From contig JAUCBJ010003233.1 of NCBI GenBank assembly GCA_032718475.1, positions 8,742 to 72,741 of the forward strand: a stretch of DNA of 64,000 nucleotides, given 5' to 3'. Positions 3,384 to 51,024 of the stretch are shown one piece after another. Source of the DNA: Nemertoderma westbladi. Lineage: Eukaryota; Animalia; Xenacoelomorpha. The position numbers and the translations under genes are program-made. The notes under the pieces are model-generated. The model saw only the letters and a list, made by a program, of their open reading frames with translations, made no database searches and had not been told where the DNA came from. The first letter of the stretch is position 1, and every line of letters starts with the position of its first letter.

Positions 3384-6300
3384 ATGATGGAGATTAATTG
3401 CGTTTTTTGCGGTTGTACTATACTTAAGAAAAATTATTTACGGCATTTACGCACACATTTCGATGGGTATGTTTGCGATAATTGTAATTGCCGAACTACT
3501 TCTGAAAGAATAGCAATATTTCACAGTAATAGATGTTGCGGGTTGTCTCGTCCGAATTACACCTACTGAGGTTACACGCTATCCTGCCCGACATGCTCTG
3601 ATGATTTTGAAAACTTCGATTCATATATCGAACATAGTTGCCATCAAAACCATTACAATTCCCGCAAACGCAAACATAACCAAAAACAATCAGAACCGAC
3701 ATTTCAACCGGATCTCAACGTTGGTTCGCCTGTAAGCATTACAAACAGCTCAGATACACCCAACAAAGGTTTTCATCTCTCAAAAACATGTCACGAATCA
3801 CGCGTTCAGGAATATACCCATAATGTGTCATCTAATGAGATGTATCCAGATGTGCCGAATTATTTAAATTATATGGGGTTATATGCTTCGTGCGCTTTTA
3901 ACACGGCGGCATCGGCTTTTATTGATATGTTTTATAAAGTGTGGGTAATTGCTTCAGTGATAATGGAACGTGATGATGCTAATTATACTCTACAAGAAGA
4001 ATTCCATTTTACTTCGATCGGTACAGATAATTATATTGAAAATAGCTCGGATTTTGACGAATGGTACTACGCAGTCATTTCCCATATCGGTGAAAAAATA
4101 TCGCAATTTATTAGGCGGGGTAGCGGCTGGAAACTTGTAACTCTATCGCGCATCAAACTTACTATTGCGTCATACTTGCGATCGGTATATCGTTTTGGAC
4201 ATAGCGGTGATGCCAACCAATCAATCCCGACAAAATTAAAAAATAAACATTGTATAATAAATGTACCGTGTAATGAAGGTGAATGTTTTAAGTGGGCGGT
4301 CCTGACAGCAAAATTTTCAAAACATATATCGGATGATCACACACTGCGCCATGTTTCACGCCAAAGTTCTTATAATCAGTATTTAGGGTTTTTTAATTTA
4401 AGCGAATTAGATTCTACCCTATCATGGAAACTAAATATTCTAAAGTTTGAAAAAAATAATCCAAATTATTTAAAAAATTTATTGTACTTTGATAGAAGTA
4501 GCGAAAAAATTTCCTTTCTACGACAACCAAGCGCTAAAAAAGCTGAAGGTAAAAGATTGCTAAATTTATTGCTTATTGAACGTCAAAATTTAACCTCAAC
4601 AAATCACATCGTCGGGGTTTCTAACTTAAATAGATTATTTAATGGTCGTGGGGAAGGCAATAGCAACAATCATTGTCATCGTTGTGAGCGGTGTATTCGC
4701 GGTTTCTACAGTCCAAATGCGTTAGAACGCCATAGATTAGGGTGTTGGCAAGGCGGGCGCCAAATAGAGGAGATGCCATCTAAACTGAATTTACGTTTTA
4801 CTAATTACTATAAGTCTGTGAGTACACCTTTCATAGTATATATGGATTTCGAAGTGGTACTAGCCCCAACAAATAATGTAAAAAAATATTATATAGCCGA
4901 ACATCTCCCGTCGGCCGTTTCATATTTGATTGTCCCCAATAGCGAATTAATTAACCCCCCAAATTATTTTTTGTCTACATTTAGACAAAATATCGATAAT
5001 AACTCGGTACAGAATTTTATTGATAGTCTGGTTTTTGATTTATTTAAGTGTTATGAATGGTCTACCTTTAACACACACCACCCCAAACACCTGGATCACA
5101 CACAATACCAAGCTTATATGCGTACCACAAATTGCTTTAATTGTAAATCATTTTTTCGGGAAGATATAAATCCAAGTGTGATGCATCACAACCATTACAA
5201 CGGGGCTTTCATTGGTGCGGCGTGTATTTCCTATAATAAACAATTAAGTGTTAAATGTCACCTATTCCCAGTTGTCTGTCATAATTTTTTTTTTATGATT
5301 CACATTTAATTTTACAAAAAGGGTTTGCCGGTAGTAAATATAAAAATTGGAACATTGAAACCATTGCAAAAAATACTGAAAGATATATCTCACTCCGCAT
5401 CGATATTCCAATGTCAGAAGCACTTAGCGTGCTTGGTTATGCTATTCCAGAAAAGGACGTAAGAGGGCTCCCAACCAGCAAATCAATAACTATACAGTTT
5501 ATTGATTCATTCGCGTTTATGGGATTTTCCCTTTCTGCTTTGGCTGGGTTTTTGACAAAAGATGTGTCAGATTTAACAACCGTTATTCCGCACACTGTGA
5601 AGCAAATGAGAAAATTATATCCAAATGTTACCAACGAAATTTTATGCCGTAAGTCAGTTTTTCCTTACGAATATGTCGATTCCTTAAGTAAATTGGGGGA
5701 TACTAAATTACCGCATCCAAAAGAGTTTTACAGTGAATTAACATTATCATCTATTAGCCCTGAAGAATATACATTTGCTCATCTTTCGTGGGAACAATTT
5801 CAATGTGAGACACTTTTTGATTATTTGGAAGCTTACTTACATCTTGACGTGTTGCTGCTAGCCGATATTTTTGAAAATTTTCGCGCATATTGTACTAAAC
5901 ATTATTCGCTTGAGGTCTCGAACTATTACACGATGGCAGGGGTTAGTTGGGACGCGGCTTTGAGATTTTCCAAGTCACATATTCGTCTACTTGCAGACCA
6001 TGAAATGTATTTAACATTCGAAAATTCCATTAGGGGTGGAGTTTCTTACACCAACCTTCATATGGCAAATGCGAATATACCAGGCACAGAAACATACGAC
6101 CCTAATAAACCCGAAGCTCATTTATATAATTTAGATTTCAACAGTTTATATAGCGGTTCTTTGTCGGAGAAACTTCCTTATTCTGACTTTGAATGGTTGG
6201 ATGTTGATAGTGTCGATATCATGAGTCTGGAAATTGACGAAATATATGAATACTTTGCAGTTGTAGACCTTGAATACCCAATGACTATTCATGATGCCAC

Positions 6301-7453
6301 AGCCGAGCTTCCATTTGCACCGGAGCATGTTAAACTCGATAGTAGGTATCTCAGTCCACACATGAAAAGTCTTTGGCGACATTATAATGGTGATAAAATT
6401 TTCAATAGCCCAGCAAAAAAATTGATGTTAACCCAATTTGATAAGTATGAGTACGGTGTGCATCTAAAATTATTGCGCTTTTATATTCATCATGGTATGC
6501 GCTTGATTAAAGTTCATAAACTTATTAGATTTAAGCAAGGTTACATTTTTAAGGATTTTATTGAATATAACACCAAGCAAAGAAAAATAGCAAGCAATGA
6601 CTTTTATGATAAGTTTCACAAAGGAACAAATAACGCGCTTTTCGGGAAAAGCATGGAGAATATACGGGACCGTGTCTCATTTCGCTTATGTAATTCAATC
6701 GAGAAATGTGACTTATTATTATCCAAGCCGAATCACGAAAATTTAATTATGTTCACTGATTCATTATCAGGTCACGTCCTATCTAAGACTGCGGTTTGTT
6801 TGCATAAACCTATTTTTTTAGGCCAAGCTGTATTGGACCTGTCGAAGTTAGATTATTACAGTTTCTTCTACGAGAAATTAAAGCCCCTGGAAGCCGAATT
6901 AAATTGTAGTATAAATTTGTTAGGTGGGGACAAGGATTCTTTTTTTTTACAGTGTGTTGGTTTATCCCAACACCAATTTTTATCTGCGTTACAATCAAAA
7001 AAAGTTTTAGACTGTTCAAATTATCCTATTACACATCCGTTGTATACAGTAGAACAGAAAGGGAAATATAGATATTTAAAGGATGAAGGGAAGTCTATCC
7101 CGTTTGACCAGGTTATTTTACTTAGACCAAAATGTTATAGCTTTCGTGGGGGGTCAGTTCCAAAACGTGCCGCTAAAGGCGTAGGAAAAATGGTTATAAA
7201 AAAGAAACTCTCCCACGAATCATATTTAAAAGTATATAACGAGGTTAGCGAGCATTACGAATACAGTCAAAGGTTTCAATCTAATTTACATAAAATATAC
7301 ACCGTTTCACAAAGAAAAAAATCGCTAACACTGTGGGAAGATAAAAGATACTACACATCGACTAATGAAAGTCTACCTTACGGCCATTATAAAACACATT
7401 TGGATCGTAAAGCGCCTGCCCCTAAGCTTTATATACCGCCCATTATAGAATAG
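3384..7453 (+). pseudogene. Protein-primed family B DNA polymerase (pPolB), frameshifted
   Basis: Zn-finger-like N-terminal piece (3384-3569); GSGW, CFKWAV, YMDFE (ExoI); HN..YDSH across a T10 frameshift at 5285-5294; FIDS, FPYEY, DFNSLY, KxxxNALFGK, and GGDKDS in place of YxDTDS. Confidence 0.92.
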
Positions 7454-7462
7454 CGGATTGCG

Positions 7463-8022
7463 ATGTCTTTTAGTGTTGTCAACAGTAATATAAGTTTGAG
7501 GTTGGTTGATGGGTGCATATCATTCGATGTGCTGGCTAAACGAATTCGAAATGGAAAACTCATCTTAAAGCCTTTTCAATATATCGCCAAAATTTGCGGA
7601 TGGATGTGTCTCTTTTTCCCGAGCGGTAAGGTCACTGTACTCGGTAAATCGCCTAAAATAAAAAAATTATTAAGTATATATATAAGCATACTGATTATAA
7701 ACTAACTTTTATTTCAATCAATAGCCAAACTTATATTATTAACAATCTAGACATAGACTATAGCAAATTAATGAAAACGGTCGGGTTTCATTTTTTAGAT
7801 AATTATTATAATGTGGAGGTGAAATATGAGCCAGAGATATTTAATAATATTCTTGTGCAGTTTTATCGTCGGGGTAAAACTAGTTCTAATATCATAACAT
7901 TTTGCGTTTTTTACACACGAAATGTTGTGTGTATGGCAAGACCCAGGATATTTCGAGTATTTTTTCCAAAGTTTTTGAATTTTATTGGTAATTTAGATAG
8001 TCATTTAGGTAGAAATATTTAA
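7463..8022 (+). pseudogene. TATA-binding-protein-like gene split in two ORFs
   Basis: CLFFPSGKVTVLG resembles TBP repeat 1 (LIFSSGKMVCTG); YEPEIFNNILVQF and CVFYTRNVVCMA resemble repeat 2 (YEPELFPGLIYRM, LIFVSGKVVLTG). Confidence 0.7.
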
Positions 8023-8449
8023 TATTTAATTTTTTCATTTCTGGTGCCAGTTTTAGGTTTGTCCGGTGGGATCTCGTTAGGTTTTTAAATAAACATGGAT
8101 ATTAACATTATTCACATTATATATAATGTGTTTTATCGGTAGTCTTAGGTTGTCAAGGGCGTCAATTTCATTTCTGATGTCGGTTTATATTTACATAAAT
8201 CTAGTCTATCTGTCTATTTGTCGGTCTTTCTGTCAGTCAGTATGTCAAAATTAATTCATTGTTCGCGTTATATAATGTATTTTATTAATTATTGATGTTA
8301 GGTTTTAAAGAGTGCCGGTTTCTATAATTGCTCGGTTTTATTGCGTGAAAAACCCCACCCACGCATATAATCGATACTATTTATAACGGTGGTGGTGTTT
8401 TATTACTTACAATTATTGTTCTCGTTTATATAAGTTATTAATATATGTA

Positions 8450-8914
8450 ATGAAATCACTCAAAGCTTTAATTAAACAATTTGACGGGGATTTAAAGTTC
8501 TTATCTAACGCCTCCCTTAACCGTAGAAAAACCTTCTTACGCGTCGGTGGAACCGACGAACTTATAAGTTTTCTAATTAATATTATTCTAAATGTATTAA
8601 ATGGTAACGTAAAAATTCCTGAGCAAACAATCGTGAGGTTAAAACGCCATAAAAAAACAATACGCGAGATCGCTAAAAAGCCAAAAGCAGCCAAGTATCC
8701 CATTCGAATTTATCGTAAACGATTGGTGCAAAGGGGCGGATTTATAAATCTACTAATCTCTGGTTTAATGAGTGGGCTTAACGCTTATCAGAAAATATCA
8801 CCCATAATAACGGCTGTAAGAGGCATAAAATTAGCCCAATCCCGCCGGGGGTATAGACCTAGTACCTCTGGTACATGCGTCAACCGTCAAGTTTCTAGGT
8901 TTCCCATCTACTGA
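8450..8914 (+). CDS. Small basic Polinton virion core-like protein (adenovirus pX-like motif)
   Basis: LNVLNGNVKI...KRHKKTIREIA...LVQRGGFINLL pattern typical of Polintons; xxGG|F resembles an adenain cleavage site. Confidence 0.7.
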   Translation: MKSLKALIKQFDGDLKFLSNASLNRRKTFLRVGGTDELISFLINIILNVLNGNVKIPEQTIVRLKRHKKTIREIAKKPKAAKYPIRIYRKRLVQRGGFINLLISGLMSGLNAYQKISPIITAVRGIKLAQSRRGYRPSTSGTCVNRQVSRFPIY

Positions 8915-8931
8915 GTGGCTACCTATCAACA

Positions 8932-9657
8932 ATGTCCCGAGAGCCGACGATATCGCAGGAACCAATCACATCATACGACGCCTCTTTCAAGATGGGTTCG
9001 GCCATGATTATTGCGGGTCCAAGTTCTTCCGGAAAAACAGTGCTGGTATCAAAAATTGTAAAAAATAAAAATTTAGTTTTTGATATAACCCCGAAGCGTG
9101 TATTATTCTTTTATGGCGCCACCCCACCAGAATTCCCAGGTATAACACATCTATTCAAAGGTTTACCGCAAAAAATTAATTCTATTTTCCGCGAAAACGA
9201 TCTAATTATTATAGACGACTTGTTAAGCGAAAGTAAGAGTGATGAGAGTTTGACAGAAAGCTTCACAAAAACCTGCCATCATACTTCCTGTTTCATTATC
9301 TATATAACACAAAATTTCTTCAGTAAAGGGGCGGAAACACGGACTAGAAGTCTAAATGCCCAATATTGTATTTTCACAAAAAATCCCCGCGACACAAGTC
9401 AAAGCGACACAAGTCAAATAAGTTATATAGCGCGGCAAGTGTACCCAAAAAATAGCAATTTTATTGTTCAAGCATATAGTGACGCCACACAAAAACCATT
9501 CACACACCTTCTCTTAGACTTTCATCAAAAAACGGATGATAGTATAAGAGTTAGGGATGATATTTTCAACCCATTAGGGCAAACTGTTTATCAACCCACG
9601 AACACGAACTCTAACACACCTCACCAACGCCCTGAGGCTCAGTCTATACCGCAGTAG
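8932..9657 (+). CDS. A32/FtsK-like genome packaging ATPase
   Basis: Walker A GPSSSGKT, Walker B IIIDD, ITQN, RSLNAQY, KNPRD. Confidence 0.92.
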   Translation: MSREPTISQEPITSYDASFKMGSAMIIAGPSSSGKTVLVSKIVKNKNLVFDITPKRVLFFYGATPPEFPGITHLFKGLPQKINSIFRENDLIIIDDLLSESKSDESLTESFTKTCHHTSCFIIYITQNFFSKGAETRTRSLNAQYCIFTKNPRDTSQSDTSQISYIARQVYPKNSNFIVQAYSDATQKPFTHLLLDFHQKTDDSIRVRDDIFNPLGQTVYQPTNTNSNTPHQRPEAQSIPQ

Positions 9658-9778
9658 CGACGCCGCGCGAAAACCATTTTCACACCTTGTTTAGACTTTC
9701 ACCAAAATTAGGTTATTATCGGTCCATGAACGTGAACTCTAGTATATAGTATTAATATATTAATAATGATATATAACG

Positions 9779-10160
9779 ATGAAAAATAACGAGATTAGCC
9801 TCGGAAATTTTAAGAAGTTGTATCTAGTTTCTACTTTATTAACGGATACTTATAATAATAATAAGAAGAAAAGCAATAATATAATACAACCCCTAGATGG
9901 TGTGACAATTTCATCCCAGAAAGCCAAACGATTGTTGAGTTATTTGATGCGATTCTCGTGAGACAGAGTACGGTGGAGTGATAATAATAAACTCTATATA
10001 GAAAATAAACTTATACCCGGAGCGAATATTGATCATTTGATTGAATTGCTGACTACAAAAAAAATAAGAAAAACACCAAAATAATTCCAGGACAAACAAC
10101 ATTTTTGGGGTTATTAAAACGATTAAGGATACCAAAACGATTAATTGGTCGCGGTTGGTT
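9779..10160 (+). pseudogene. Conserved Polinton protein, interrupted by stops
   Basis: Reading through the TGA gives KAKRLLSYL...VRWSDNNKLYIENKLIPGANIDHLI, a W..GE...IPGSNI.DL-type motif common in Polintons. Confidence 0.5.
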
Positions 10161-10357
10161 GAAACGGTAAAGGGTCCATGTGACCCCCTCCAACGCAAAA
10201 CGCATCGATGCGTGGAAACAATACGTAGGACTACAATAAATCGACGTGCGGAAACAAAACGCGGGATAACATTAAAATAGTAGTATGTTTTTTGAACGTT
10301 TCATATTAAGTATTAACTGTCATTGCAAGTGTTTTCTACCGCGACACGACACAACCG

Positions 10358-11443
10358 ATGGGGAGAATCGTAGAAAATCGAACAAACAAACGACTGGGAA
10401 GAATATATTACGATGTTTCAAATGCTGCCGGTTTCGCGAGCATAACCAAACTAGCGAAAGCCGCTAAAGTTACGAGAAATCGTGCAAAGGAGTGGTTGAG
10501 CTCCCAACGAACGTATTCCCTACACGCGCCGGCTAGGCGCCATTACCCGACATCAAAAATTTTCACGGGCGGCATTGGAGATCTATATCAGGTGGACCTA
10601 TGCGATATGCAACCCTTTAGGGCGGAGAATAATGGTTATGGTTACATAATTACATGTATCGATTGCTTTAGTCGCAAGGCGTGGGCACTAGGGTTAAAAC
10701 GTAAAACCGGTGTCAAAATTAAACGCGCCCTAACCACGATATTCGAAGAAAGGAAGCCTAAACGACTAGCAGTTGATCAAGGAACTGAGTTTGTAAATAA
10801 ATTAGTGAAAGAATTCTTACAGAATAATAATGTTAATTTTTATACATTAGTTAGCCAATTTAAAGCTAGCTTCTGTGAGAGGCTGAACCGTACACTTAAG
10901 TCGAAAATGTATAAAGTGTTCACAAGATGGCAAAATAGGAAATGGATCAACATATTACCGAAGCTGGTAATTTCATATAATAATTCAATACATAGAACCA
11001 TCGGTATGGCGCCAAACTCAGTCAATAAAAATAATGAAACTGACTTATTTTTAAAACTATATGGCAGTGTGCGCCATCCCAATAAAAAGAAACGCCGCAA
11101 ACAGCGTCGAGTTCATTTCAAGGTTGGTGATAAGGTGCGGCTGAGTTTAGCTAGAAAGCCATTTGACAAAGGTTATATACCTAATTATACAGTAGAAATT
11201 TTCGAAATTTACAGAATAAGATTGGATCGAGAGCCGTACCCTATGTACGAAGTTGTGGATTCGAATGGGCACGTTATAAAGGGGACATTTTATCGACATG
11301 AAATCCAAAAGGTAAAAGAACCATTTAAATTCCTATCAATTGAAAAAATAATTAAAGAAAAAGTAAATAAAAGCGGCAAAAAGCAATATTTGGTTAAATT
11401 TGTTGGTTTTGCGGCACATCGATGGGTTGATCACGTACAATAA
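10358..11443 (+). CDS. Retroviral-type (c-integrase) DDE integrase with C-terminal chromodomain-like region
   Basis: QVDLCDM, IDCFSRKAW, VDQGTEF, CERLNRTLK, YNNSIHRTIGMAP, FKVGDKVR, YLVKFVGF. Confidence 0.95.
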   Translation: MGRIVENRTNKRLGRIYYDVSNAAGFASITKLAKAAKVTRNRAKEWLSSQRTYSLHAPARRHYPTSKIFTGGIGDLYQVDLCDMQPFRAENNGYGYIITCIDCFSRKAWALGLKRKTGVKIKRALTTIFEERKPKRLAVDQGTEFVNKLVKEFLQNNNVNFYTLVSQFKASFCERLNRTLKSKMYKVFTRWQNRKWINILPKLVISYNNSIHRTIGMAPNSVNKNNETDLFLKLYGSVRHPNKKKRRKQRRVHFKVGDKVRLSLARKPFDKGYIPNYTVEIFEIYRIRLDREPYPMYEVVDSNGHVIKGTFYRHEIQKVKEPFKFLSIEKIIKEKVNKSGKKQYLVKFVGFAAHRWVDHVQ

Positions 11444-11457
11444 TTAATTATATTATT

Positions 11458-12343
11458 ATGGATTACTTACATTTAACGTTGACTTCCGACGCCAGTCTAG
11501 ATAAATATCCCGATAACACTCCCAGCGATTTCACGATTGAGTTGTCCAAACCTATCCCCGTCAGCACAGATTGGGTCGCGGGTCTAAAGGAAATATAGTA
11601 TGTGTCGACAATATAGAAATATTGAACAAAGATCTGGAATTAGAATTGGTGAATATATGTATGATGAGGATTTTGAATTTCATATAGCTCCATACAATCT
11701 TATAGAAATCGATTTTAATCTTGGGCTATATGCTTCTATTGAGTCAATTTTAAACCATATTAGTGTTTATTTGAAAAATCTCTCAATATCCCACCACAGT
11801 TTCAAAGATGTTAAGTTTAACTACCAAAAACATACATCAAAAATTCATCTACATTGTAAGAAAGGTCGCTATTTCCAATTCTATGGAGATATTATAAATA
11901 TTTTCGGGTTATCGAGTTTAAAAAATAATTTAATGGGTCTTGGGGCGCTTTGGGCAATACACTACAACGAAGATGATGGTTTATTGAACTTAGGCTGTAA
12001 AGATACAAACAAAATGGATGGAGTTGAATTCCCCGAACCTTGCGATATAACGAGGGATAGACACACAATGTTTATATATACAGATATGATTGAATCTTCT
12101 CACGTAGGACATTCGATGGCGCCTCTTTTGCGGATAATCCCTTTGAAATGGGAACCATACTCATTCATCAACCAGGAATTCAAAAACACACATTACAAAC
12201 AATTAAGAAATAAAAAAGTGCTCGATACAATTAGTATAACGCTTCGCGACCATAAAGGAAAGCATATAGTCTTTCATGGAGGTAAAACAATTTTAGTTCT
12301 AGAACTCAAAAAACAACAACGGCGACAAAAACTACAAGAATGA
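11458..12343 (+). pseudogene. Minor capsid (penton) protein 1, stop plus frameshift near 11597
   Basis: LTLTSDASLDKYPDNTPSDFTIEL...WVAGLKEI* then MFIYTDMIESSHVGHSMAPLLRII...ISITLRDHKG. Confidence 0.8.
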
Positions 12344-13135
12344 ACAGTTATTACATTGTACTACCCTCAAACGCAAACCCCATAGAATTCCCGCGTAATA
12401 GCGCCAGCGATTTCCAAACAAATTTGCAAATTCCTTTACCTTTCGCTAAAGGGCAATGGTTAGTAGGTTTAACCGGTATAACGTACGTATCTAGTATCAG
12501 GTATGACAATTTATATAAAGGCCATAAAAAATAAAAAAATGTTTACAAGAGATGTTACTCTCCCCGAAGGATCTTTCCTATCATTGGAAAGGATCATTGA
12601 GTACTTCAACAAAAGCCTTATTAAAGGCTAAATTAATATAATTGATAATACAGCACGCTCTGGTAATATAACCATACATTTTAAAGGTAAACAGTTGTCG
12701 ATATTTGTCAGTAAACGTTTGGGTGGTTAACTAGGATTAACAGAACACGAGGTTGATGGCAAAGGTTTTATGTGTGTGCAAAATGCTGTAGGGGATTATC
12801 ACTTGCTAAGGATTGATTCATGGAATAATAAGTACGACTGCCATAAGCATCCTAATGCTGTCGAAATACTGGAACCCAACATAAATATACATATCAATTG
12901 CGTCGAACCTCAATTTGTAGACAATAGCGAATACCCTCTGTTGCGTAGCATACCCATAGAAGGGGAATATGGGCAAATTATTAGTCGAGAAGTTGAGGAA
13001 GTCTACTATAAAAAAGTTAATTCAACATCTAATTTACGTTATATACGAGTTTGGTTGATTGGAGATTCCGGAAATTTGTTGCGCTTTCATTATGGAAATT
13101 CAATATTGACGCTTCATTTTATACGAATTGATTGA
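12340..13135 (+). pseudogene. Minor capsid (penton) protein 2, fragmented
   Basis: YIVLPSNANPIEFPRNSASDF...WLVGLTGITY and CVEPQFVDNSEYPLLRSIP...ILTLHF are the same family motifs as penton 1. Confidence 0.75.
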
Positions 13136-13209
13136 GATAGTCACAATTTAATCGATGTAAATTATTTATTATTTATTATTATCCGATTATCTGAAGTAAT
13201 AGCGACTAT

Positions 13210-13803
13210 ATGGATAAATTTCTAAGTCGCAGCCGTGGGCGTGATTATTACCCGACGCTGGAAAACCCAGGAATAATAGTAGATTTCCAATATTATACGC
13301 ATCATCCGCAGATCGGCCAACACCCCGTTGCAACCATTTATTTTAAAGAGTTTGCGACTTATAATACTACCATCAAATCATTAGAAAACGTATGGTTTAT
13401 TAATGGTCCACCCGCAAAAATTTTAAGTTTAAGCGAATACGATCGTCTCACACAACTCGCCAATATTACGCATCACATTAATTTTGACTACGGATTTATG
13501 GACCAAAGCGTATTTAAAATGTACATACAGGAATGGTTACAAGAAAAAAAACGGTTGGGGTTTCAAATATTAATACGCGGAATACCGAAATTATTTATTT
13601 TAAAAAATGAATTTAATGTGAATGGAACACTTCTAGAAACGTACGGCATAAACGAAAAATATGTCGATTATGACACCAAATGTCTTTTCCACGATTATTC
13701 GGCAATAACAAATTGTGCCTACCATTCTGATAAAGATTCTTGTTTTAATTACTGTTCTATGAAACTCGCAGTTGGTTATGGGAAATGGTTGTCATCAAAT
13801 TAA
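13210..13803 (+). CDS. Conserved Polinton protein, possible DEDD/RNase H-like fold with Cys/His tail
   Basis: IIVDFQY...FKEFA N-terminal motif and CAYH...YCS C-terminus; the fold call is tentative. Confidence 0.55.
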   Translation: MDKFLSRSRGRDYYPTLENPGIIVDFQYYTHHPQIGQHPVATIYFKEFATYNTTIKSLENVWFINGPPAKILSLSEYDRLTQLANITHHINFDYGFMDQSVFKMYIQEWLQEKKRLGFQILIRGIPKLFILKNEFNVNGTLLETYGINEKYVDYDTKCLFHDYSAITNCAYHSDKDSCFNYCSMKLAVGYGKWLSSN

Positions 13804-14374
13804 TGTGTATATATTTATTAATTATATTGTATTATTATGTGGTACATATATTATTTGTTGATTACACATATACGTATGTAGTAAAGAATTATTATTATAC
13901 GTTATAATAAATACTCATAATAATAATGTCAGATTCTAATTTGTTTAAATTATATAGCACCCCACAAATCCAACTGGGAAGTGGGAATTATAGCGATATA
14001 CCCGTTTTTAAGGGTGGAAGCATTCTCCCCGGGTTTGGCCTATCTACTGGTATATGGAATAATAAGAATAATAAATTCGGCCAGCGATACACCCAAAATC
14101 GTCAGCGCGGGCGCGGAATATTAACAACTGGTCTGGGTATATTAGCGCGCAAGTTAGGGAGAAAGGTGCTAACTAAAGCACTCCCCAAAGCAGCGAAAGT
14201 AGCGCGGAAATACATAATACCAGAAGGAAAACGTATTTTACGCAGTAAAGCAGATGATTTGATAAATAAAGTGGCCACGCGGTTAGAACCTCATCCAAAG
14301 ACACGCCAAATCGCCCAACGGGTATACAATGAATTTACAAACCCGAAAAGTAAAAAAAAGTGGAGCGGGAAACG

Positions 14375-14403
14375 CACAGTGGGCCAGAGGTGGTCAAAAC
14401 TCA
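14375..14403 (+). repeat. Left TIR: heptamer, 12-bp spacer, nonamer-like TCAAAACTC
   Basis: CACAGTG GGCCAGAGGTGG TCAAAACTC. Confidence 0.85.
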
Positions 14404-15096
14404 AAAAAAATAATGTTTTCAAATTTTTTTTTTTGGCATCCCAAGTTAAAGGTGATATATATATTGACTAAAAAAAAGCAAAAAAAAATTTTTTTATTTC
14501 AAAATTTTCTGATTTTGGCAAAAATTTCAAAATTCTAGAATTTTTTGCACAATTTTCACATTTTATACACAAAATAAATATTTTTCCAATAAAATCAAAA
14601 CATTTTATTCAAATTGAAAAATTTTTTTTTTCAAAATGTTCTACTCTTCCAGTAGATTCCAAAAATGACACAATCGAGTTGGTAGGGGCAATAGTTTAAA
14701 ATTTATATTGTAAAATGTTCTAAAATATTTACAAAATGTGATAATTTTAAATTTTAGGAAGCCAGGGAAAAAAAGCTCCGCTGAGCTCCGCAAAAATTTG
14801 TATCAGATTTTGTTACTCGATCATTCATGGTTGAAAAACATCAAAAATTAGCTGCTACCATCTGCTACTTTTATGAGAAATCAAAAAAGTTGACCAGCAG
14901 AATTTTACGATATTTTGATTTTTAGGCTGTTTGCAGGTTCTCTGAGTGCCATGACACCATCATCTTCTCTACTCACTATTCTTATCTGGTTTCATTTAGC
15001 CAATCCCAATGGCTCTGTAATATTGAGGTTGTTAATGCATGAGCTTTGTGATTGGCTAATTGCGTAGGTTGTACCTGCCAATTCCACTATAAAGGA

Positions 15097-15390
15097 GCAG
15101 CATGGAAAGTATAATGATTCATTGTCATGTTGGAGAATTATACCTCACAGTCAGACAGTCACTACTGGATACTGGAATAATGCGATGTACTGCACAGCAC
15201 AGTGTGTTTTAAATTAGTATATAAAATACCGGTATCGTCTTATATAAGCAGCAGCATGGAAAGTATAATACTTCTTTGTCATGTTGGATAATTATATCTC
15301 ATAGTCAGACAGTCACTTGAATAATGCGATGTACTGCACAATGTGACTTAAATTAGTATAATAAATACAAGTATTGACTTATATAATCTT
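15097..15390. repeat. Two-copy ~150-bp tandem duplication in Transib 5' region
   Basis: gcagcatggaaagtataat...agtcagacagtcact...aaattagtata occurs twice. Confidence 0.8.
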
Positions 15391-15545
15391 GAGTTAACTT
15401 GCTTTGCAATCACTTCTGGCTCTGCTATCACTTCTTACTCTATAAATTAAAATTACAGCACATTTTTTAAAAGTTTATGAGAATCTATAAATACATCTTA
15501 TCACAAATATAATATTTAAATATTAAGTAAAATAGTACAAACAAA

Positions 15546-17613
15546 ATGTTGCGTATTGATCTACATAATTATATCAGGTCCAACCTAGAGGGAAAATCCC
15601 CAATCAATCCACTCAATTTGATGCTCTTTTAAATTTTGTCATGGAGCAGAACCCATCTGCCTCATCTTTGAAAGTTGGTAAAATTCTTAGAACATTCTTA
15701 ATAAAGTACAGAGCTAAGTGGCAATCAGCATGTCGAATCCTGTCTAAATTCGAAAATAAAAATTATGCATGGCTTCATTCGACCTTTGTAGCTGAAGGTG
15801 ATTGTTTACCATCGCCAGTTACACCTCAGCAACAACAACATCAGCAAGATCATATGAATGTTGAGGCGGGAGAAAATAATTATTTTTCTCGCAAAAATAA
15901 ATCAGGTAGAAGAACAATAGACTTTGGGGAAGCTTCAGATCGTACGAAACGCAGACGAGTACAGGAAATAACATCGGAATTTAAAACTCCTGCTCTTGTC
16001 GCAGCAACTGCAGCTTCCTTGAAAGCTGAAGGTAGAAAACGTACATCTGAAATAATCAAGCATGTTTCTACCGAGCCCGAATCATCTGTAGTATATTCTG
16101 ATGATGAAGCTCTTGCACTAATGCTCGATGGAAAATTAAGTAAATCAATGTACCAGATAATCAGAAACAAAGCATGTTCTAAGGGTGTCAACATCTACCC
16201 AGCATACAATCACGTCCGGGAAGCCAAAAATAGGTGTTACCCATTAGGAATAATTTCCCAGGATTATCAGGCATCTGTCCCATTGCAAAACCTGCTTGAC
16301 CATACCACCAAACGTATTTGTGACACTAGTAGTGAAGTAATTCACTCAATCATCACTAATACGGGCGAAATTTGCCGAATGGTGTTGCGAAGCAAGGTGG
16401 GTTTTGATGGGAGCACTGGACAGTCCTCATACAAACAGCTTCCAAGTTCTGGAGCAAACTTTGCTGATGACTCATCCATATTTATTACATGCTTGGTTCC
16501 ACTGGAACTCCGAGCTTTTACAGAATGCAGCCCACATCATAAGGTTGTATGGCGAAACCCCATCCTTCGTCTACCTTATATTGTAGACCAGTTCGCTTCG
16601 AGTATACCAAAGAAACAACTCAGCGAATCACCGATGAGCAAGAGAGGCTATTTAAAGAGATAGCTGATGTAAAATCAAGCTGTAGTGAAGTCATCCCTGC
16701 TGATACCTCTCTGTCTAAGCTCTCAGTAATGCACATCATTGATGTAACAATGATAGATGGCAAGGTACACACCGCGCTGTCTGATATGACTGACAGCAGC
16801 CAAAGTTGTTCTTTGTGTGGCGCCACACCTTCACTTATGAATGAAATTGACCTTCTGTTGAAGAGAAAAGTCACAGAAAAGAACTCCATGTACCACCATG
16901 GTCTTTCCACACTTCATCAGTGGATCCGTTTTCTGGAATGCTTGCTGCATATAGCCTACAGAAGAACACTTAAAGTATGGTCTGTTAGGGGTAAAACTGC
17001 AAAGCAGATTATGAAAACGGAGAAAGCACTGATCCAAGACCAGTTTCATACTGAACTTGGGTTAATCATAGATCAACCCAAATCTGGTGGCTCTGGTACT
17101 TCCAATGATGGAAATACAGCAAGAAGGGTATTCCAAAATGCTGAGGTCTCTGCCAGAATACTTGGCATTGACAAATCATTCCTAGATCGACTGCACATCA
17201 TCCTAATTTCTCTTTGTTGTGGCTTCGATGTTGATGCTGACAAATTTCAAGAATATGCCCTTGAAACAGCTAGACGTTATGTAACCCTTTTTCCATGGTA
17301 CTACATGCCACAATCAATGCATAAGGTCCTAATCCATGGACACCTTGCAATTAAATCTTTGTCCTTGCCAATAGGCATGTATAGTGAAGAGGCACAGGAA
17401 GCTCGAAACAAAGATTTCAAGAGGTTCAGAGAGGGTTTCTCACGGAAATCTTCAAGGGTTGATACGAACCGTGATCTGATGAACCGATGGCTTTATTCAT
17501 CAGACCCATATATCTCATCACTACGTAACGTTACCAACAACATCAAAAGGACTGCAATTCCTGAAGATGTGTTACATCTTCTGAAACCATTTGATGTTGA
17601 CAAAATATTTTAA
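15546..17613 (+). pseudogene. Transib transposase (RAG1-core homolog), 1-2 single-base frameshifts
   Basis: NBD*-like GRRTIDFGEASDRTKRRR; catalytic GFDG, TMIDGK and SEEAQE; CSLC plus LH and HKVLIH zinc ligands; GSGTSNDGNTARR; frameshift in C4 run at 16558-16561 (WRNP/HPSSTLYCRP). Confidence 0.93.
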
Positions 17614-17631
17614 AATTTAGTATACTGATAA

Positions 17632-17882
17632 GCTTGGGATCCCGTAAGAATCCAACATTCTGGTTTTAGGCTTCCAGCAATAGGTCAAACAAAAAGCCAA
17701 TAGCACATATAGTAAGCACTTGGCTTGGGATCCAATAAGACTCCAACATTCTGGTTTTGGGCTTCCAGCATTAGGTCAAACAAAAAGCCAATAGCACATA
17801 TAGTATGCACTTGGCTTGGGATCCAATAAGACTCCAACATTCTGGTTTTTGGCTTCCAGCCTTAGGTCAAACAAAAAGTCAA
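17632..17882. repeat. ~91-bp tandem repeat x3
   Basis: gcttgggatcc...ccaacattctggtttt...ggtcaaacaaaaag repeated. Confidence 0.85.
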
Positions 17883-18034
17883 ACTCTGTCTCCCTGCAAC
17901 ACGTTGACGTCGTGGCAGAGCTTAATGCTGAAAAAATACTTTAGTTTACTAAGTTTGCAGGAAATTGTACCACTTTTATGGAACATGTCAAAATAATCGC
18001 ATCAAAAGCTTTGAAAATTTGTGTGTGATAATTT

Positions 18035-18730
18035 GTGCCATGCTAAACAGATATGCCATGTGCCACATGCTAAAAAGTGGCACCTATATGCCACTAGATA
18101 ATTCGAAACAATTTGTAATCTAATCACCACCTTTGAAAACCTATAAAAACAGAAAATGGCACATTTCTATGAAGTAATAGAGATTTGGATATTTGGTGCC
18201 ATGCTAAACACATGTGCCAAATGCTAAAAAGTGGCATCTATGTGCACTAGATAATTCGAAACCATTTGTAATCGAATCAGCACCTTTGAAAACCTATAAA
18301 TCCCGAAAATGGAACATTTCTATGAAGCAATAGATATTTTGATATTTTGTGCCATGCTAAACACATGTGCCAAATGCTAAAAAGTGGCACCTATGTGCCA
18401 CTAGATAATTCGAAACCATTTGTAATTGAATCAGCACCTTTGAAAACCTATAAATCCCGAAAATGGAACATTTCTATGAAGCAATAGATATTTTGATATT
18501 TTGTGCCATGCTAAACACATGTGCCAAATGCTAAAAAGTGGCACCTATGTGCCACTAGATAATTCGAAACAATTTGTAATCTAATCACCACCTTTGAAAA
18601 CCTATAAATACCGAAAATGCAACATTTCTATGAAGCAATAGAGATTTTGATATTTTGTGCCATTCTTAACACATGTGCCATGTGCCACAAGCTCAAAAGT
18701 CACTTCTACGGTACTAGAGAATTTGAAACC
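18035..18730. repeat. ~154-bp subterminal tandem repeat x4-5 in Transib
   Basis: gtgccatgctaaacacatgtgcc...ctagataattcgaaac...acctttgaaaacctataaa units, e.g. starting 18349 and 18503. Confidence 0.9.
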
Positions 18731-18952
18731 ATTTGTTAACGCGTCAGCACCCTGTTAAACCTTGTGAAACCGAAATCTGTGCCATTCTGCCTGTGTCTAT
18801 TGTGTTTGCCAAATATGCCGATTTTGGCACGTGCCAGAAATGGCACAAAGCTACCATTTGAGAATTTGAAACCCATCTCAGAAGATTCGCCGCTGTCGAA
18901 AACCCTTACAGGTTAAAAATTGTGCTCAAATCATGAATATTTTTAGAAATAA

Positions 18953-18991
18953 TGAATTTTGGCCGCAAAACAGGGTTTCTGGCCCACTGTG
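18953..18991 (-). repeat. Right TIR: heptamer, 22-bp spacer, nonamer-like CCAAAATTC
   Basis: Reverse complement CACAGTG GGCCAGAAACCCTGTTTTGCGG CCAAAATTC. Confidence 0.85.
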
Positions 18992-19082
18992 AAACGGCGA
19001 CACCCAAGTGTGGGTATGAACGTTGGGCGCAAACGTAAAAAGCGAAATAATAAATGTCGTGATAGTTTTATATAACTTAACA

Positions 19083-20333
19083 ATGAGTAAATTAGAATTA
19101 TCCTTATTCTCGAGTAAAACAAATCAGCAAGAATATACATCTTCACATTTTTTGGATATCTACCCGATTTCTACTCTTGACGCGAATGCCAGGCAAATAG
19201 AGTTCTTTATACCCCAGTCAAATGTTCTATATACTGATTTAAAGAATTCGAAATTTCACATTAAATATAAAATTACATAGGATGGTAATAGGGCTAACGA
19301 CTATACAACCCTCCATCATCTTAATTACCCGGGTGGGTCACTATTTGAAAATTGTTCGTTATACCTAAATGAAAAGCTAGTTGAAACCTCGAATGGGTTC
19401 TACGCCTATAAGTCTACGTTTCAGACATTACTGTTGACAGATGCTAACGAAAAACGCGGTATTTTAAGAGCTGGCGGTTATGAAGATACAAATAATAATC
19501 TAGGCGGGGTACCTGTCGCTACTGAGAATGACGTTCGTGGGAATTATGTTAAATTCGTTGTGGCCCCAATTTTTTTAGACCTAACAAGCCAGGACAAATT
19601 ACTGCCGCCGGGAATTAACATTTGACTTCGTATAGACCGAGTATCGAATAATTTTTTTTTGAAAGTTGAACCCCCCGCAGGATTGGTAAACCCAAGAGTT
19701 GAAATCATGAATATTAATTTAAAAATAAAACGCCACAGGATTGATGCCGAGGTTATGCGGGCGCATTTGTTGGGGTCACAAAAAAATGACATTATTTATA
19801 ACTTGTTAAAACAAGAAGTGAAAACCTTCACTATTGGCGGCGGACAGTCCAGTTATACAGAATCGAACATAATCCAAGGGAAATTACCTAAGTATATTTT
19901 GATTGGAATGCTTACCAACGCCAGCTTCAACGGGGAATTAAGCAGTAATCCGCTACATTTTAACCATTTCGGTTTAAATTATGCCGAACTAAACATCGAC
20001 TCCCGTATTATACACGGATATCCATATCGCCCTAACTTTCCGGAAAACAATTTTATGTTGGAATTCGAAAGTTTAATGAACGTGTTCAAGAGCTTGAGCG
20101 GCGTATTTTGCTCGCTAACACCAGAACAGTTTCGTACCCAATTTCCTTTGATCGTATTTGATCTTACCGCTGGAGGCGATCAAAGCCACGAGATTCAACC
20201 TAGTATTCATACAAGCGGGCATTTGATTCTGAAATTTAGTAATGCGCTAGTTAACACTATTAACATTATATTAATGGCAAGCTATGACGCTCTTCTATCT
20301 ATTTCGGAAGCCAAGGAAATAATAACCGAATAA
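19083..20333 (+). pseudogene. Major capsid protein (double jelly-roll, hexon-like) with two in-frame stops
   Basis: ELSLF, IEFFIP, YTDLKNS, SLFENCSLYLNE, FYAYK, QDKLLP, GKLPKYILIGM, NPLHFNHF, FDLT; three ORFs in one frame separated by TAG 19278 and TGA 19623. Confidence 0.9.
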
Positions 20334-20427
20334 ATAAAGATCTCGCATAGTACAAAGTAAGCGAAGCCACACCGCCTGTGGAATTAGAAAAATTCTCTTA
20401 AACTTTTAATGATACGCGTACGCTAAG

Positions 20428-20868
20428 ATGCTGGACTCTATACAATTAGCGAAATTCCCGGTGGGGCCCGAATACATCGGTGTTTACGCAATCGACCAAT
20501 TACACCTAATACACGCAAAAAAAAATAAGCATAAACAAAATTATTCATTTATTATTAATAATCAACGTATAGGCCTACCGGGGCAACACTGGTCTTGCGT
20601 AAGCGTGGTTAAGAGAATTGCTTATTATTTAGATTCGTTTGGTAAAGCCCCTCCACCGAAAATATCATATTGGTTGCATAAATATACCCAAAGGCATACT
20701 TGGAATCGTAAAATATTTCAAGCGCCGCAATCGACTCAGTGTGGTCTATTTTGTCTGTATTATTTAACCGAGGTGCCGAAAAATCCCGGAGCAATGAATA
20801 TATTCACCTCTAATTTGCGGTACAATGATTTATTGTTATTACTGTGGACACTTTCATTAATAAAATAA
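20428..20868 (+). CDS. Adenain-like cysteine maturation protease
   Basis: PGQHW, YLDSFG, FQAPQSTQCGLFC give the His/Asp/Gln/Cys catalytic set. Confidence 0.92.
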   Translation: MLDSIQLAKFPVGPEYIGVYAIDQLHLIHAKKNKHKQNYSFIINNQRIGLPGQHWSCVSVVKRIAYYLDSFGKAPPPKISYWLHKYTQRHTWNRKIFQAPQSTQCGLFCLYYLTEVPKNPGAMNIFTSNLRYNDLLLLLWTLSLIK

Positions 20869-24666: not shown

Positions 24667-27173
24667 CTAAGGTGCCCCTTCTAATAGGCAGCACTTTCCT
24701 ACAGCCATCCTGTAGGTCTTCCTAACTTTTGCTCCTATCTTGCCTCCTATTCTCACTTCCACCGACTGGACTCTTCCGTCCTCATCGGGGTAAGTATCTA
24801 CCACTCTCGCTGGTCTCCACTGGTTATTGATAATTGTGTTGTCAGTGACGATTACCAAGTCACCTTTCTTCAGCTCACTATTGGTGTTTCCCCACTTACT
24901 CCTCCTGTGTAACGTGGGAAGATAATCCCTCTTCTCATCTCCTCCAATACTCAGCACTTATTGCCTTGGTGACTTTCCAACTTTGACGGGAATGTATGTC
25001 ATCTGGGTCTACACCCCGCATGTTGATGGTCGCCGGCCTCTCCATCAGAAAGTGTCCCAGTGTTAGCACATCCAGTGATTCCGGGTCGTCATTCTCTGGA
25101 TATAGTGGTCTGCTATTAATGATTCCCTCGCACTTGGCTAGCACCATTCTTAATATGTCCCCTGTGACCATGTGGGTGTTCATCAGCTTGGTCATTAGAC
25201 GCTTAGAACTTCCCACAAGTCTCTCTACACATCCTAATGTGTATGGCGTGTACGGCATCCTCCTTTCCCACTTTACTTTCCGTCTCATCATAGCCACCCT
25301 GACATCGTCTCCCTCTAAGATGTCGAAGGCCTTGGCCAACTCATTCTCCACTCCCACGAAGTTGGTCCCGTTATCTGAATATATCATGCTGATTGTTCCC
25401 TCTTTACGGTTAACAAATCTTTCTAAGGCATTAATGAATGCCGATGCCGTAGCGTCCTGCGCGAGTTCTATACCTACCACTCTCGGGTTGTTGCATACGA
25501 AAATAATGCCGTAGCGTTTCTCCGTGTGTCGTATCACCTTTATCTTAATCGGCCCGAACATGTCTACGCCGCAGTGCATGAATGACGGGTCGTGTTGTCT
25601 CACTCTATTGGCCGGTAATGGCGCCATCTCCTTTCTCGTCCGTTGGCAGGTCTGGCACTGCCCCACTACCGCCTTCACCTTCTTCCTAAGTTGTATGATC
25701 CAGAATGTCCTTCGTGTCTCTGTGAGGGTCTGATTCGTGCCTCGGTGTAATATCGACTTCTGTGAGTCCCAAATGATCTGGTGGAATATCGGTGATCTGT
25801 TAGGAATTATTATGGGTTTTGGTGGGATAACTAGGCTGTTGTTGTTCACCACTCTGAAATTCATCACCAAAATCTCGTCATTGTTCAACTGCGGGGACAG
25901 CGTGTTGAGTTCGCTGTCCCGACGAAGGTGTTGTTGCTTGCTAACTCTGTCCACTTCGTCGGCGTAGTTCTTTCTCTGCTCGTATCGTATTACGGCTTTA
26001 GCCGCTCCTTCCAGATCGATGGTTGGTTTCCTTTTGGCATCCTTGCCAACTCCCCTAAGGAAATCCCCGTAGGCCCCCCAGTATGCTACCAACTTTTTAG
26101 TCTTATACCAGCTGGAGCTGTAACTGAGCAACCTATCCGTCAGGTTGTCACATGGTTCTTCTGATTTCGGTGGCACCTCCTTGATCTCCCTCACCATCTG
26201 GCTGTATATCTCTTCTCCTTCTGAATCTTCCCCCTCTTCTTCTGGTTCTACTTCCTCTGAGCCCGGGTCCACCTTCCTCATTGGTGGCCAGGCTGATCTA
26301 TCGTTCAGGAAGTGTGGCCCGTGCTGCTACAACCCTTCCTTCTTTGAGAAAGTGTGGCGTGCCATGCCCCTCGATAACAAATCTGCTGGGTTGTCGTCGG
26401 TAGGGCAGTAATGCCACCTTTCTAGGTCAGTCGTCGCCCTTATCACTTCTACCCTATTCGCGACGAATATGGGGTATCTTGTCTTCTCATTATGTAGTCA
26501 CCCTAGCACTACCATGGAGTCCGTCCAGTAGTGTGTCTCCACTATGTTGGGTATAGTATCCATCAAGTAGGCTGTGCCCTTACTCCTAACCTCGCAGCTG
26601 TCAGCTCGAGTTTCGGGACTGACGCTGAATCTGGTGGCGTCGACTTCGCTTTACTAAATGCAAGTCTGGGCTTATGAGCCGAGCCCCCTTTCGCTGTACC
26701 AGATAAAGTGATGCTCCGTATGCTTCCAAAGATGCATCGGAGAACATGTGTAGGTCCAGGTCCGTCATGTCTCCGTCCGGGAAATAGACGCGTGGCATGC
26801 TGTACATCCCCATCTGTTCTAGACTCCCCATCCATTTACTCCACTGTTTACTTATTTCTTCCGTGACCTCCGTATCCCACTCATCCTTTAACTTGTATAC
26901 TTTCTTTAGTATCTGTTTCCCTGTGACTAACAATGGGGATGCTAGGCCTAGGGGATCGTATATCCTTGCTATGTACGATGCATAGCCCCGCTTTGTGTGG
27001 ATCTCTGAGCCCTCTTGGCTCAGTTGATACTCCAACTCGTCCGTCTCCCAGTTCCACACGATCCCTAGTGCCTTCTGCTGAGACTCCACTCTCTTGTTCA
27101 CCATGTCCTGTCCCTTTGCTGTTGTAGGGCTGTCCATGGTCGACTCTGGCCGCCTGTCTTCTATGGCTTTCAT
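24667..27173 (-). pseudogene. Bel/Pao pol (RT C-term, RNase H, integrase), multiple frameshifts
   Basis: TKRG..IYDPLG, FSDAS, PKLEL, GVDMFGP, SDNGTNF, VERLV, INSRPL, WRPARV. Confidence 0.9.
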
Positions 27174-27307
27174 AAACTATTTTGCGTGAGGCAAGCCACA
27201 TACAGTAGGGGATGTTGGATGTTACTAAAATAGGCACACAGTCAAACCCCACCGGGAGGAGGCACACAGGCCCACACTAAAATAGGCACACAGTCAAACA
27301 CAAGCGG

Positions 27308-29625
27308 CAATTCTAATGAGCTGAGGAGCCGTTGGGCTCCCTCTAATGATTCTGAGAGTACTCCTAAGTCATCAGCAAAGTCTAGATCAGTTAGGTACTT
27401 GGCAGGATTTCCTCGACTTCTGGAGCCAGTAGGTGGAGTTATCATCACCCCATCATCATTATAATGATCTAAGGACATGCGTAGAACATAGTCAACCACA
27501 ATAATGAACAAGAATGGTGCAAGTGTGTCTCCTTGGAGGACGCCCCATAACACTTCAAATGGTTCTGTGTCACCGTCAACAGTAGACACAAATGTTGTCG
27601 AACCATCATATACTGATCTGATTGCTGCAATAATTTCATCAGGAATCCCATATAGTGAAAGTATGCTGAACATACGTGAGCGAGAGACTGAATCAAAGGC
27701 CTTGAAGAAGTCAACAAAGATAACAGCCAGATGCCTGTCTTTCTTTTTGGATAACTCTTCAATTATCCTTCTAAGTGCCAAAATGGGCTCCATGGTCCCA
27801 CGACCTTTACGGAACCCATTCTGATTTCCACGGAGCAGTCTCTCAATGGGATCCCTGATGCGATTTAATAGAATCCTATTGTATAGCTTTGCAGCAATTG
27901 AGATCAATGAGATTCCCCGCAAAGAACCATAGAGTGTTAGGTTGCCCTTCTTGGGAACTGGCACCATTTGTTTTCATTTCTTGTGGGACTCTTGTTGTTC
28001 GGTACATGTCTACTATGATGGGATAGATGAGCTTTAAACACTCAGGTATTTTAAAGACCTCAGACGATTGGTCTTAATGCTCTTTGCAGCAGCCGTCACT
28101 TCTGCAAAGGAGATATCGCCAATGGGAATATCTGGGAGTACAGACTCAGACACTTTTACTTCTATAAAATTATCAGGCAATACCCTGTCATTATTGAGGA
28201 GCTTTTCAAAGTGGGCTTTCCAACCATTGAGGCGATCGGCTGGTGATTCAGCCTTAACCTTGGTGGTTGGTTGGCTTTTCCGCCCAGTAAGCAGATTGAT
28301 CGATTTCCATGCCTGGGATGATTGCCTGCTGTCGTCAGCATCATTGATCGCATCAACCTGTTGGTTTATTAGCTCCTGTAGATTAGCAGAGTACTGTCTG
28401 TTCAGGGACCTAGATGCAGACTTAACTGCATTCTTGGCTGCTGTAGTCTGTTTGAGCCGGGACTCTTTCTGCGCCTTATGAAGGTCATTTCGGCACTTCT
28501 GAATTTTGTTGTCAGTCCAGGGGGCCCTTTTCCTGTTTCGAGGGTATACAGGAACTGTTTCTGCAGCTGCTAACTTAACTGCTTCTGTAAAGGCAGTATA
28601 GCCCTCACAGTGATCTGCCGCCTCAGAGGCAAGAGCCTCATACCTGTTGCTCAGCTGTAGTGTGAAGCTGGATCTCACACTTGGCTGTTGCAACAGAGAG
28701 GACCAGTCATGCCGCGGCAAGGCAGATTTCGTTGTTCTGCTAGCACGCAGACTAAGTCTTACCTTGGCCACAATAAGGCGGTGATCACTGGAGAAGGGTC
28801 GAAGTGTAAATGCATTACAGTCTTGTATAGAGCTCCTGTATTTCCTACGAAACAGAATATGGTCTATCTGGGACTTGTGACCACTGGGTCCACTATGAGT
28901 CCATAGCTTTCCAGTTCGCTTCTTGAACTGGGTTCCAGCCGAAAACAATCCATTTCCAGAGATAAAATCCTGAAGATGGACAGAATTTCGGTTAACACTA
29001 TTGCTATAGACCCAGGGCGATGTAGGTGATTGATGCAGACTTGCATTAAAGTCTCCCAGGAATGTTAAGAATGCATGCTGATCCACTCCATCAGTAGCTG
29101 CTTGTAGATTGTGGTAGAAATTTTCCACCTCCTCTACAGGGGCAACACTAGTTGGAGAGTAGCACACAATCAGAACCACCTTAGGAAACTTCTTAGCCAG
29201 TCTTCCAGAACATGAGAAGTGGCAACGGATGATGCGGTTAGAGATTTGGTCTATTTTGTCCAATGCTGCATGTGCAGTTTGATTCATCAATAGACCAATT
29301 CCACCATTGCCACTATCATCTGCTGGCGAGTGCTCTGCGAGGGCGAGTCGCCAACCGCCCCCCATATCCTTAATCAGAACCTCATCAGTCTGTCCAGTCT
29401 GCATTCGGTGCTCTTGAACACCCACTGCGCTAAGAGAAAGCTTATCTGCCAAGGCAGTCAGCTCACCTTGTCGCATTGGGGACCCGAGTGTTAGGGTGTT
29501 TACTGAGGCTAGTCTAGTGACTTGCCTCAGATTCACCAATGGCTTTGTTGGTCGGGGTGGAACATGAGAGTAGCCTCCAACTCCAGAATCCCTCTCCCCA
29601 TCACAATCTGGCCACAGTTCTTTTA
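27308..29625 (-). pseudogene. RTE-clade non-LTR retrotransposon fragment (APE endonuclease plus RT, 3'-truncated)
   Basis: VGVQE, CYSPT, LGDFNA, QIDHIL, SDHRL; PKKGNL..RGISL, NQNGFRKGR, FVDFFKAFDSV, GVLQGDTLAP, DFADD. Confidence 0.9.
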
Positions 29626-29636
29626 GAGCAGTACTG

Positions 29637-51009: not shown

Positions 51010-51011
51010 AA

Positions 51012-51024
51012 ATTAAGAATAATT
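51012..51024 (+). promoter_or_regulatory. Atypical primer-binding site complementary to LTR 50782-50794
   Basis: ATTAAGAATAATT lies 2 nt after the LTR and is the exact reverse complement of AATTATTCTTAAT; no TGG tRNA-type PBS next to the LTR. Confidence 0.6.

Follow-up and report, generated by a model that had tools for sequence, protein, structure and literature searches.

A young Transib element with asymmetric, RSS-like ends and a predicted nonamer-binding domain in Nemertoderma westbladi

Introduction

Transib and RAG enzymes share their chemistry: a transposase dimer nicks the DNA at the heptamers, forms hairpins there and inserts the element with a stagger of 5 bp. The subject here is a Transib element in DNA of Nemertoderma westbladi, in a stretch of 64,000 nucleotides (contig JAUCBJ010003233.1 of assembly GCA_032718475.1, positions 8,742 to 72,741 of the forward strand). 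This whole stretch is called the window, and positions are counted from its first letter. The two ends of the element resemble recombination signal sequences (RSSs) of unequal spacing. The element is a confirmed, young member of the already known asymmetric Transibs, and what is added is a correlation, across related families, between end type and the length of a segment of the transposase.

Asymmetric Transib ends were described by Kapitonov and Jurka in 2005 (PMC1131882). Five families, Transib5 of Drosophila and Transib2_AG and TransibN1-N3_AG of Anopheles, have a 5'-RSS12/3'-RSS23 layout, and copies of TransibN1_AG retain both spacings. A box of the GGYCAAAA type is also present in the published ends of TransibN1_DM and TransibN1_SP. 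Like the five families, the window element has an RSS12-like 5' end, an RSS23-like 3' end, a heptamer starting with CAC, a 5-bp target-site duplication and no RAG2. Unlike them, it has a different box sequence and an offset of 10 bp rather than about 11 bp, in a comparison that leaves the transposases aside. A preliminary description of the locus, made from its letters alone, spoke of RSS-like asymmetry as noted in a few families. The asymmetry is real, but the layout has been in print since 2005, with the same polarity and with conservation among copies included.

The best solved relative is HzTransib (PDB 6pqn), which belongs to subgroup II of the Transibs and, like the window element, has neither a large insertion in the zinc region nor a CCGHC tail. 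Solved HzTransib lacks the nonamer-binding domain (NBD) region, however, and its ends are symmetric with little nonamer similarity. With RAG1 and the 12/23 RSSs, the element shares the exact consensus heptamer, spacers of 12 and 22 bp (the latter within 23±1), a predicted NBD-like fold and a DDE/zinc core. It differs from RAG1 in the absence of RAG2, in a shorter catalytic spacing and in having GRRT in place of GRPR; a RING/N-terminal RAG1 region was not seen in it. Its box differs from the RSS nonamer in matching at six of nine positions and carrying an added GG. Bipartite asymmetric ends are also found in PflRAGL-A, where the asymmetry is 10 bp, and in ProtoRAG (PMC10462144, PMC8289069). Both of these encode RAG2L and a CCGHC tail, whereas the window element encodes neither.

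Results

The element and its ends

The element occupies positions 14375-18991 (4,617 bp) between two copies of AAACG. It had first been placed at 14370-18996, a span that does contain it but whose remainder consists of the two target-site copies.

14370-14374, no strand: left target-site duplication AAACG; the same 5-mer stands at 18992-18996, and the joint without the element occurs in contigs of X1, X2 and X3
14375-14403, plus strand: 5' end, with heptamer 14375-14381, distal box 14392-14403, nonamer-like sequence 14394-14402 and a spacer of 12; the box position is the same in relatives L001, L030, L038 and L042
18953-18991, minus strand: 3' end, with heptamer 18985-18991, distal box 18953-18964, nonamer-like sequence 18954-18962 and a spacer of 22; 31 of 35 bases are those of the L001 3' end
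18992-18996, no strand: right target-site duplication AAACG, matching the left copy

As the preliminary description stated, both ends start with CACAGTG and have exactly 14 bp in common. A 12-nt box with the core GGYCAAAA then begins at position 18 of the 5' end and at position 28 of the 3' end. The two boxes are identical at 10 of 12 positions, the best of 51 offsets scanned, which bears out the reported shift of exactly 10 bp. In 5,000 shuffles, such a match arose with a frequency of 0.015 over all offsets and of 0.002 when only offsets 9-12 were counted; random subterminal pairs gave 0.039. The ends can be read as heptamer-12-TCAAAACTC (5') and heptamer-22-CCAAAATTC (3'), and the 6/9 score to the RSS nonamer claimed for each was reproduced. 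This score is weak by itself because the 5' end also reaches 6/9 at spacers 19, 21 and 22; it is attained by 5.9% of 5'-subterminal positions. The box is instead judged real because it is conserved in relatives, as explained below. Asymmetric Transibs have a 5' spacer of about 12 and a 3' spacer of about 23, and the spacers are 12/22 here, 12/22 in L001 and 12/23 in L038.

Outside the transposase, only two open reading frames (ORFs) of at least 60 aa are present in the element (75 and 73 aa) and none is of RAG2 size, in agreement with the earlier remark that no RAG2-like ORF is visible. A spliced RAG2-like gene in the AT-rich and tandem DNA of the element is unlikely. The RAG-like (RAGL) elements are defined by the pairing of RAG1L with RAG2L, which the window element does not have. 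Membership of that group was dropped; a CCGHC tail is missing as well. A RAG1-core-like DDE transposase, ends that start with CAC and carry a distal A-rich block, and the 5-bp duplication place it in the Transib superfamily.

The transposase and its predicted NBD

The transposase is split between two overlapping frames, and its start upstream of the ATG at 15641 is uncertain.

15569-16663, plus strand: N-terminal frame, with a helical N-terminal region, the NBD-like domain, the domain for dimerization and DNA binding (DDBD) and the first catalytic Asp in GFDG (16400-16411); HzTransib 6pqn, E 5.8e-20
15905-16069, plus strand: predicted NBD-like domain, with GRRT, three predicted helices and a link of about 10 residues to the DDBD, lacking the fourth helix of a symmetric relative; RAG1 NBD structure 3gnb, Z 5.5, root-mean-square deviation (rmsd) 3.5 over 57 residues
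16543-17613, plus strand: C-terminal frame, with the second Asp in MIDG (16750-16761), a zinc-site CxxC and two His, the catalytic Glu (17398-17400) and a short tail; 6pqn, E 3e-82
16557-16561, plus strand: single frameshift of the window copy; spanning contigs of three public runs read through it

HzTransib is the best match of both frames, far ahead of RAG1 and BbRAG1L. The frames contain the DDE triad and the zinc ligands, with the motifs GFDG, MIDG and SEEAQE. The second Asp and the Glu are 214 aa apart (D72 to E286 of the C-terminal frame, where E286 aligns with the catalytic Glu of RAG1), which is inside the range of 206-214 aa given for Transibs and differs from the 253 aa of RAG1 (PMC1131882). 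The tail has no CCGHC motif (CX2CX3GHX4C). The alignment shows no large insertion relative to HzTransib, so that the RAG2-binding region alpha11-alpha12 is without a counterpart. By these sequence features, the element agrees with subgroup II as described by Tao et al. 2022 (PMC9435367), the Transib branch farther from RAG1, and would be of the HzTransib type. A reading of the element as a direct RAG1 ancestor was dropped, since subgroup II is not the RAG1 stem.

Resurrection of the gene had been said to need one or two base fixes. One frameshift near 16559 is indeed present; a second break in the core was not seen. Contigs that cross 16559 in the three runs have one base more and an open frame, so the frameshift is either private to the window copy or an assembly error.

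The preliminary description also pointed to an NBD*-like segment, GRR...RTKRRR. It is present, with GRRT at 15905 and RTKRRR at 15941, and an NBD-like fold is predicted for it. It is not specific to asymmetric elements: the motif GR...R[ST]KRR was found in symmetric elements as well, as Tao et al. likewise state (PMC9435367), and for this reason its use as a marker of asymmetry was dropped. In the AlphaFold2 model of the N-terminal frame (predicted local distance difference test score 83), GRRT is followed by three helices, a linker of about 10 residues and the DDBD. Model residues 88-144 align to the crystal structure 3gnb with the values listed above, which exceed those of all unrelated rows. 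Solved HzTransib aligns to the model only from residue 149. Foldseek alignments to RAG1 chains span about 250-275 columns versus 196 for an entry solved without the NBD. The transposase is thus predicted to have a RAG1-like NBD.

Copies and mobility

Three public runs (2 samples, 2 studies) contain 81-87% of sampled words from the window, and one of them may be its source. A joint that skips the element, that is an empty site, is present in contigs of X1, X2 and X3 at about 7-25 times the depth of the element (depth is not a copy number). Nine contigs in X1, eight in X2 and one in X5 run from the 3' end into flanks other than that of the window copy, and a 5' end with a different flank was seen in one X2 contig. 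The empty site and the ends in other flanks indicate a young, multi-site family. Among the contig matches listed, no insertion or deletion is recorded for either end; one other 5' end, X2 record 9, has three substitutions and one gap of unlisted position over 14373-15025. Contigs cover 18042-18991, with its 154-bp repeats and the 3' end, to several times the depth seen over the transposase. This suggests that non-autonomous derivatives share the 3' part of the element.

Box position across related Transibs

Relatives (the L-numbered loci) came from a scan of metagenome contigs, and 80 of 143 were analysed. No transposase relative was found among the viral or genome contigs searched. Scans for end motifs gave 58 viral and 3 genome loci, all 61 of which were excluded because none had a transposase match at E<=0.01. 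Also dropped from the box counts were seven heptamer-plus-box matches (positions 32, 34 and 39; L043, L044, L061, L068) that lay at a distance from the true ends or nested next to them, and the L003 end was moved by 2 to the true end before counting.

The box GG[ACT]CAAAA follows 61 of 164 inward-facing heptamers versus 8 of 178 outward-facing ones. In 32 family-ends its start is bimodal, at 18 (5 ends), 19 (1), 28 (8), 29 (17) or 30 (1), with nothing between the two classes. With positions limited to classes one turn apart, the box is a conserved feature of these Transibs whose place shifts by a whole helical turn at a time. The short position occurs in 6 of 16 families at the 5' end and in 0 of 16 at the 3' end (Fisher p=0.018, phylogeny ignored). 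Where both ends were recovered (10 families), three are short/long (the window element, L001 and L038), seven long/long and none short/short.

L001 is the top-ranked relative, with 51% protein identity, an intact ORF and the same 18/28 layout; its longest coding-DNA match to the window is 64%. The box of L038 is at 18/29, so that an offset of 10-11 bp is kept in both. A quick tree of 74 rows and a careful one of 32 rows for tests were built, without the published subgroup I/II proteins. In the 32-row tree, a clade with support 100/99 unites the window element, L001 and L002 with two proteins labelled Hydra, and all three 5' ends recovered from this clade are short. Symmetric and asymmetric families are interleaved within subgroup II.

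A separate observation concerns L139, a 531-bp contig in a bacterial metagenome-assembled genome, which begins (15-60) with a Transib-like short-spacer end after CACTG and has no transposase. It is possibly eukaryotic contamination.

Arm length and end type

The arm, as the stretch between the GR motif and the DDBD is called here, measures 47-68 aa in all six families with a short 5' end and 78-85 aa in all eight measured families with a long one (11/11 if three ends with a variant box are included; L068 and L079 are left out of the counts). The model of the symmetric relative L004 has a fourth helix (82-96), which is absent from that of the window element. The pattern also agrees with HovTransib_9086, for which 29/29 ends and an 84-aa arm were counted by eye in the Tao 2022 supplement. 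The short class forms one clade in 0% of 200 bootstrap trees. No account of a link between arm length and end type was found in the literature searched, which was text, with the HzTransib and ProtoRAG structure papers, figures (including Tao 2022 Fig. S5) and some supplements outside its scope; NBD length differences might already be visible in Fig. S5.

Four short-arm relatives (L030, L038, L042, L048) form a second class, with arms of 47-55 aa that apparently lack the third NBD helix as well; the ends of L038 in this class are 18/29.

Surrounding sequences

The remaining features of the element and its immediate host are as follows.

2448-20868, plus strand: Polinton/Maverick-type gene set hosting the Transib, with dUTPase, protein-primed PolB, ATPase, integrase with chromodomain, capsid and protease
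15092-15386, plus strand: degenerate duplication with 139-154 bp spacing, upstream of the transposase
17632-17882, plus strand: tandem repeat, 91-bp unit, 2.8 copies
18057-18680, plus strand: tandem repeat, 154-bp unit, 4.1 copies

In the Polinton, integrase and dUTPase were called by Pfam, and the protein-primed PolB and double-jelly-roll capsid by Atlas features; ATPase and protease are weak matches. The Transib interrupts a basic ORF, which starts at 13911, in its 3' part; contig depth is far greater at the uninterrupted site than over the Transib. The Polinton's own ends were searched for and not found, comparison of the flanking ORFs with PHROGs and phage data gave no informative match, and no paper title on a Transib nested in a Polinton turned up in the literature search.

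Elsewhere in the window, retroelement remnants lie on the minus strand at 24935-29761 (integrase 24935-26326, endonuclease ORF 28034-29761). A 15.4-kb tandem array at 34039-49395 consists of about 393 copies of a 39-bp unit with 89% matches, and on each strand its long open frames, broken by frameshifts, code for repeats of 13 residues. At 50332-63569 is a Bel/Pao long terminal repeat (LTR) retrotransposon with a 2,115-aa ORF (51989-58336; Peptidase_A17, DUF1759/5641) and a second ORF of 874 aa (59558-62182) without a Pfam match. Two 95-bp repeats that match each other, at 50332 and 63278, probably mark its LTRs.

Discussion

The reading favoured here builds on observations: the element's ends and its 5-bp duplication, an empty site and insertions elsewhere, a DDE core, and box positions in relatives that fall into two classes. 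The element would be an HzTransib-type, cut-and-paste transposon that inserted recently, and both CACAGTG heptamers are the likely cutting sites of its transposase dimer. The predicted NBD likely grips the GGYCAAAA box, which is one helical turn apart between the two ends. Most relatives would combine a long arm, extended by one helix, with spacers of 22-23 on either side, and the window lineage appears to have a shorter arm. As the box must stay on one helical face, the shorter arm could be accommodated by shortening one end by a whole turn, and the native 5'/3' pair would probably be preferred over two long ends. On balance, we consider it probable that the NBD binds the box and that the shorter arm was met by a one-turn shortening of one end, giving a preference for the native pair. 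Only tentatively can a broader proposal be put forward, in which the fourth NBD helix was lost more than once, each loss forced one end to be a turn shorter, arm length sets end geometry and a 12/23-type pairing preference arose without RAG2. The preference proposed for the window element stops short of the strict exclusion of symmetric pairs that RAG1-RAG2 enforces.

Several points weigh against this reading. A Z of 5.5 is modest for a small helical domain, and the motif is GRRT and not GRP[RK]. Three loci with a short 5' end (L002, L030 and L042) yielded no 3' end. The association of arm and spacer (Fisher p=3e-4) ignores descent, only one or two phylogenetically independent pairs underlie it, and the approximately unbiased (AU) test does not reject a single origin of the short class (p=0.10). 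L018 (26-75) has a short arm of 55 aa but no readable GGxCAAAA box at its 5' end, and is a possible exception to the pattern. Zebrafish RAG1 spans 77 residues over the NBD-to-core segment, near the symmetric class, so that total arm length alone does not predict asymmetry; in the RAG1 arm, a short link follows the third NBD helix. By itself, RAG1 no longer prefers 12/23, and HzTransib acting alone can transpose 12/12 RSSs but not 12/23 ones (PMC4840297); published RAG2-free enzymes thus do not display the 12/23-type pairing rule that the preliminary description considered possible, which calls for caution. The HzTransib evidence is qualified in that this protein lacks most of the NBD.

These points bear on three other explanations. 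The asymmetry could simply be tolerated: the box is a real binding site, the ends are bound independently, and a phase-keeping, one-turn 5' deletion became fixed under an enzyme indifferent to pairing. RAG1 without RAG2 does accept 12/12 (PMC4840297), symmetric and asymmetric families are interleaved in subgroup II, and the arm correlation, with its one or two origins, could reflect no more than shared lineage. An indifferent enzyme does not account well for the lack of short/short families (0 of 10), for a short end that is always 5', with the same polarity in the five published families, or for an altered protein arm in every short case measured; in addition, ProtoRAG favours its asymmetric pair, though with RAG2L (PMC8289069). 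We regard tolerance as rather unlikely. At the other extreme is a strict RAG2-free rule of the 12/23 type, in which an NBD dimer pivots as in RAG1 and cleavage is coupled for one short and one long end only. Here, the three-helix NBD followed by a short linker is as in RAG1, an NBD dimer on a flexible linker enforces 12/23 in RAG (PMC10462144), and the offset of 10-11 bp is kept in L001 and L038. Against this stand the evidence that implicates RAG2 in setting up the 12/23 rule (PMC4840297) and the place of the element in subgroup II, away from the RAG1 stem, and such a rule seems distinctly improbable. The last alternative, chance similarity in A-rich subterminal DNA, draws on the fact that 6/9 nonamer matches are common near the 5' end. 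It is refuted by conservation of the box across related families, at fixed positions in 32 family-ends and in the published TransibN1_DM and TransibN1_SP ends, and its probability is very small.

Significance

Whether RAG2 is needed for the 12/23 rule, and whether asymmetric Transib ends have a function, is debated (PMC4840297, PMC8355894, PMC10462144). In the literature examined, published tests of RAG2-free pairing concern only HzTransib, a symmetric element in which most of the NBD is missing. The window family is a usable test system: it is young, its frame is open in other samples, the NBD-like region is kept, and its relative L001 has an intact ORF and the same ends. Natural symmetric/asymmetric pairs exist in L004 versus the window element or L001. 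Asymmetric ends alone were already known. The arm-length correlation adds to them a specific, unproven structural hypothesis for one-turn asymmetry without RAG2 and, if this is true, 12/23 asymmetry could arise by a small deletion in a single-subunit transposase.

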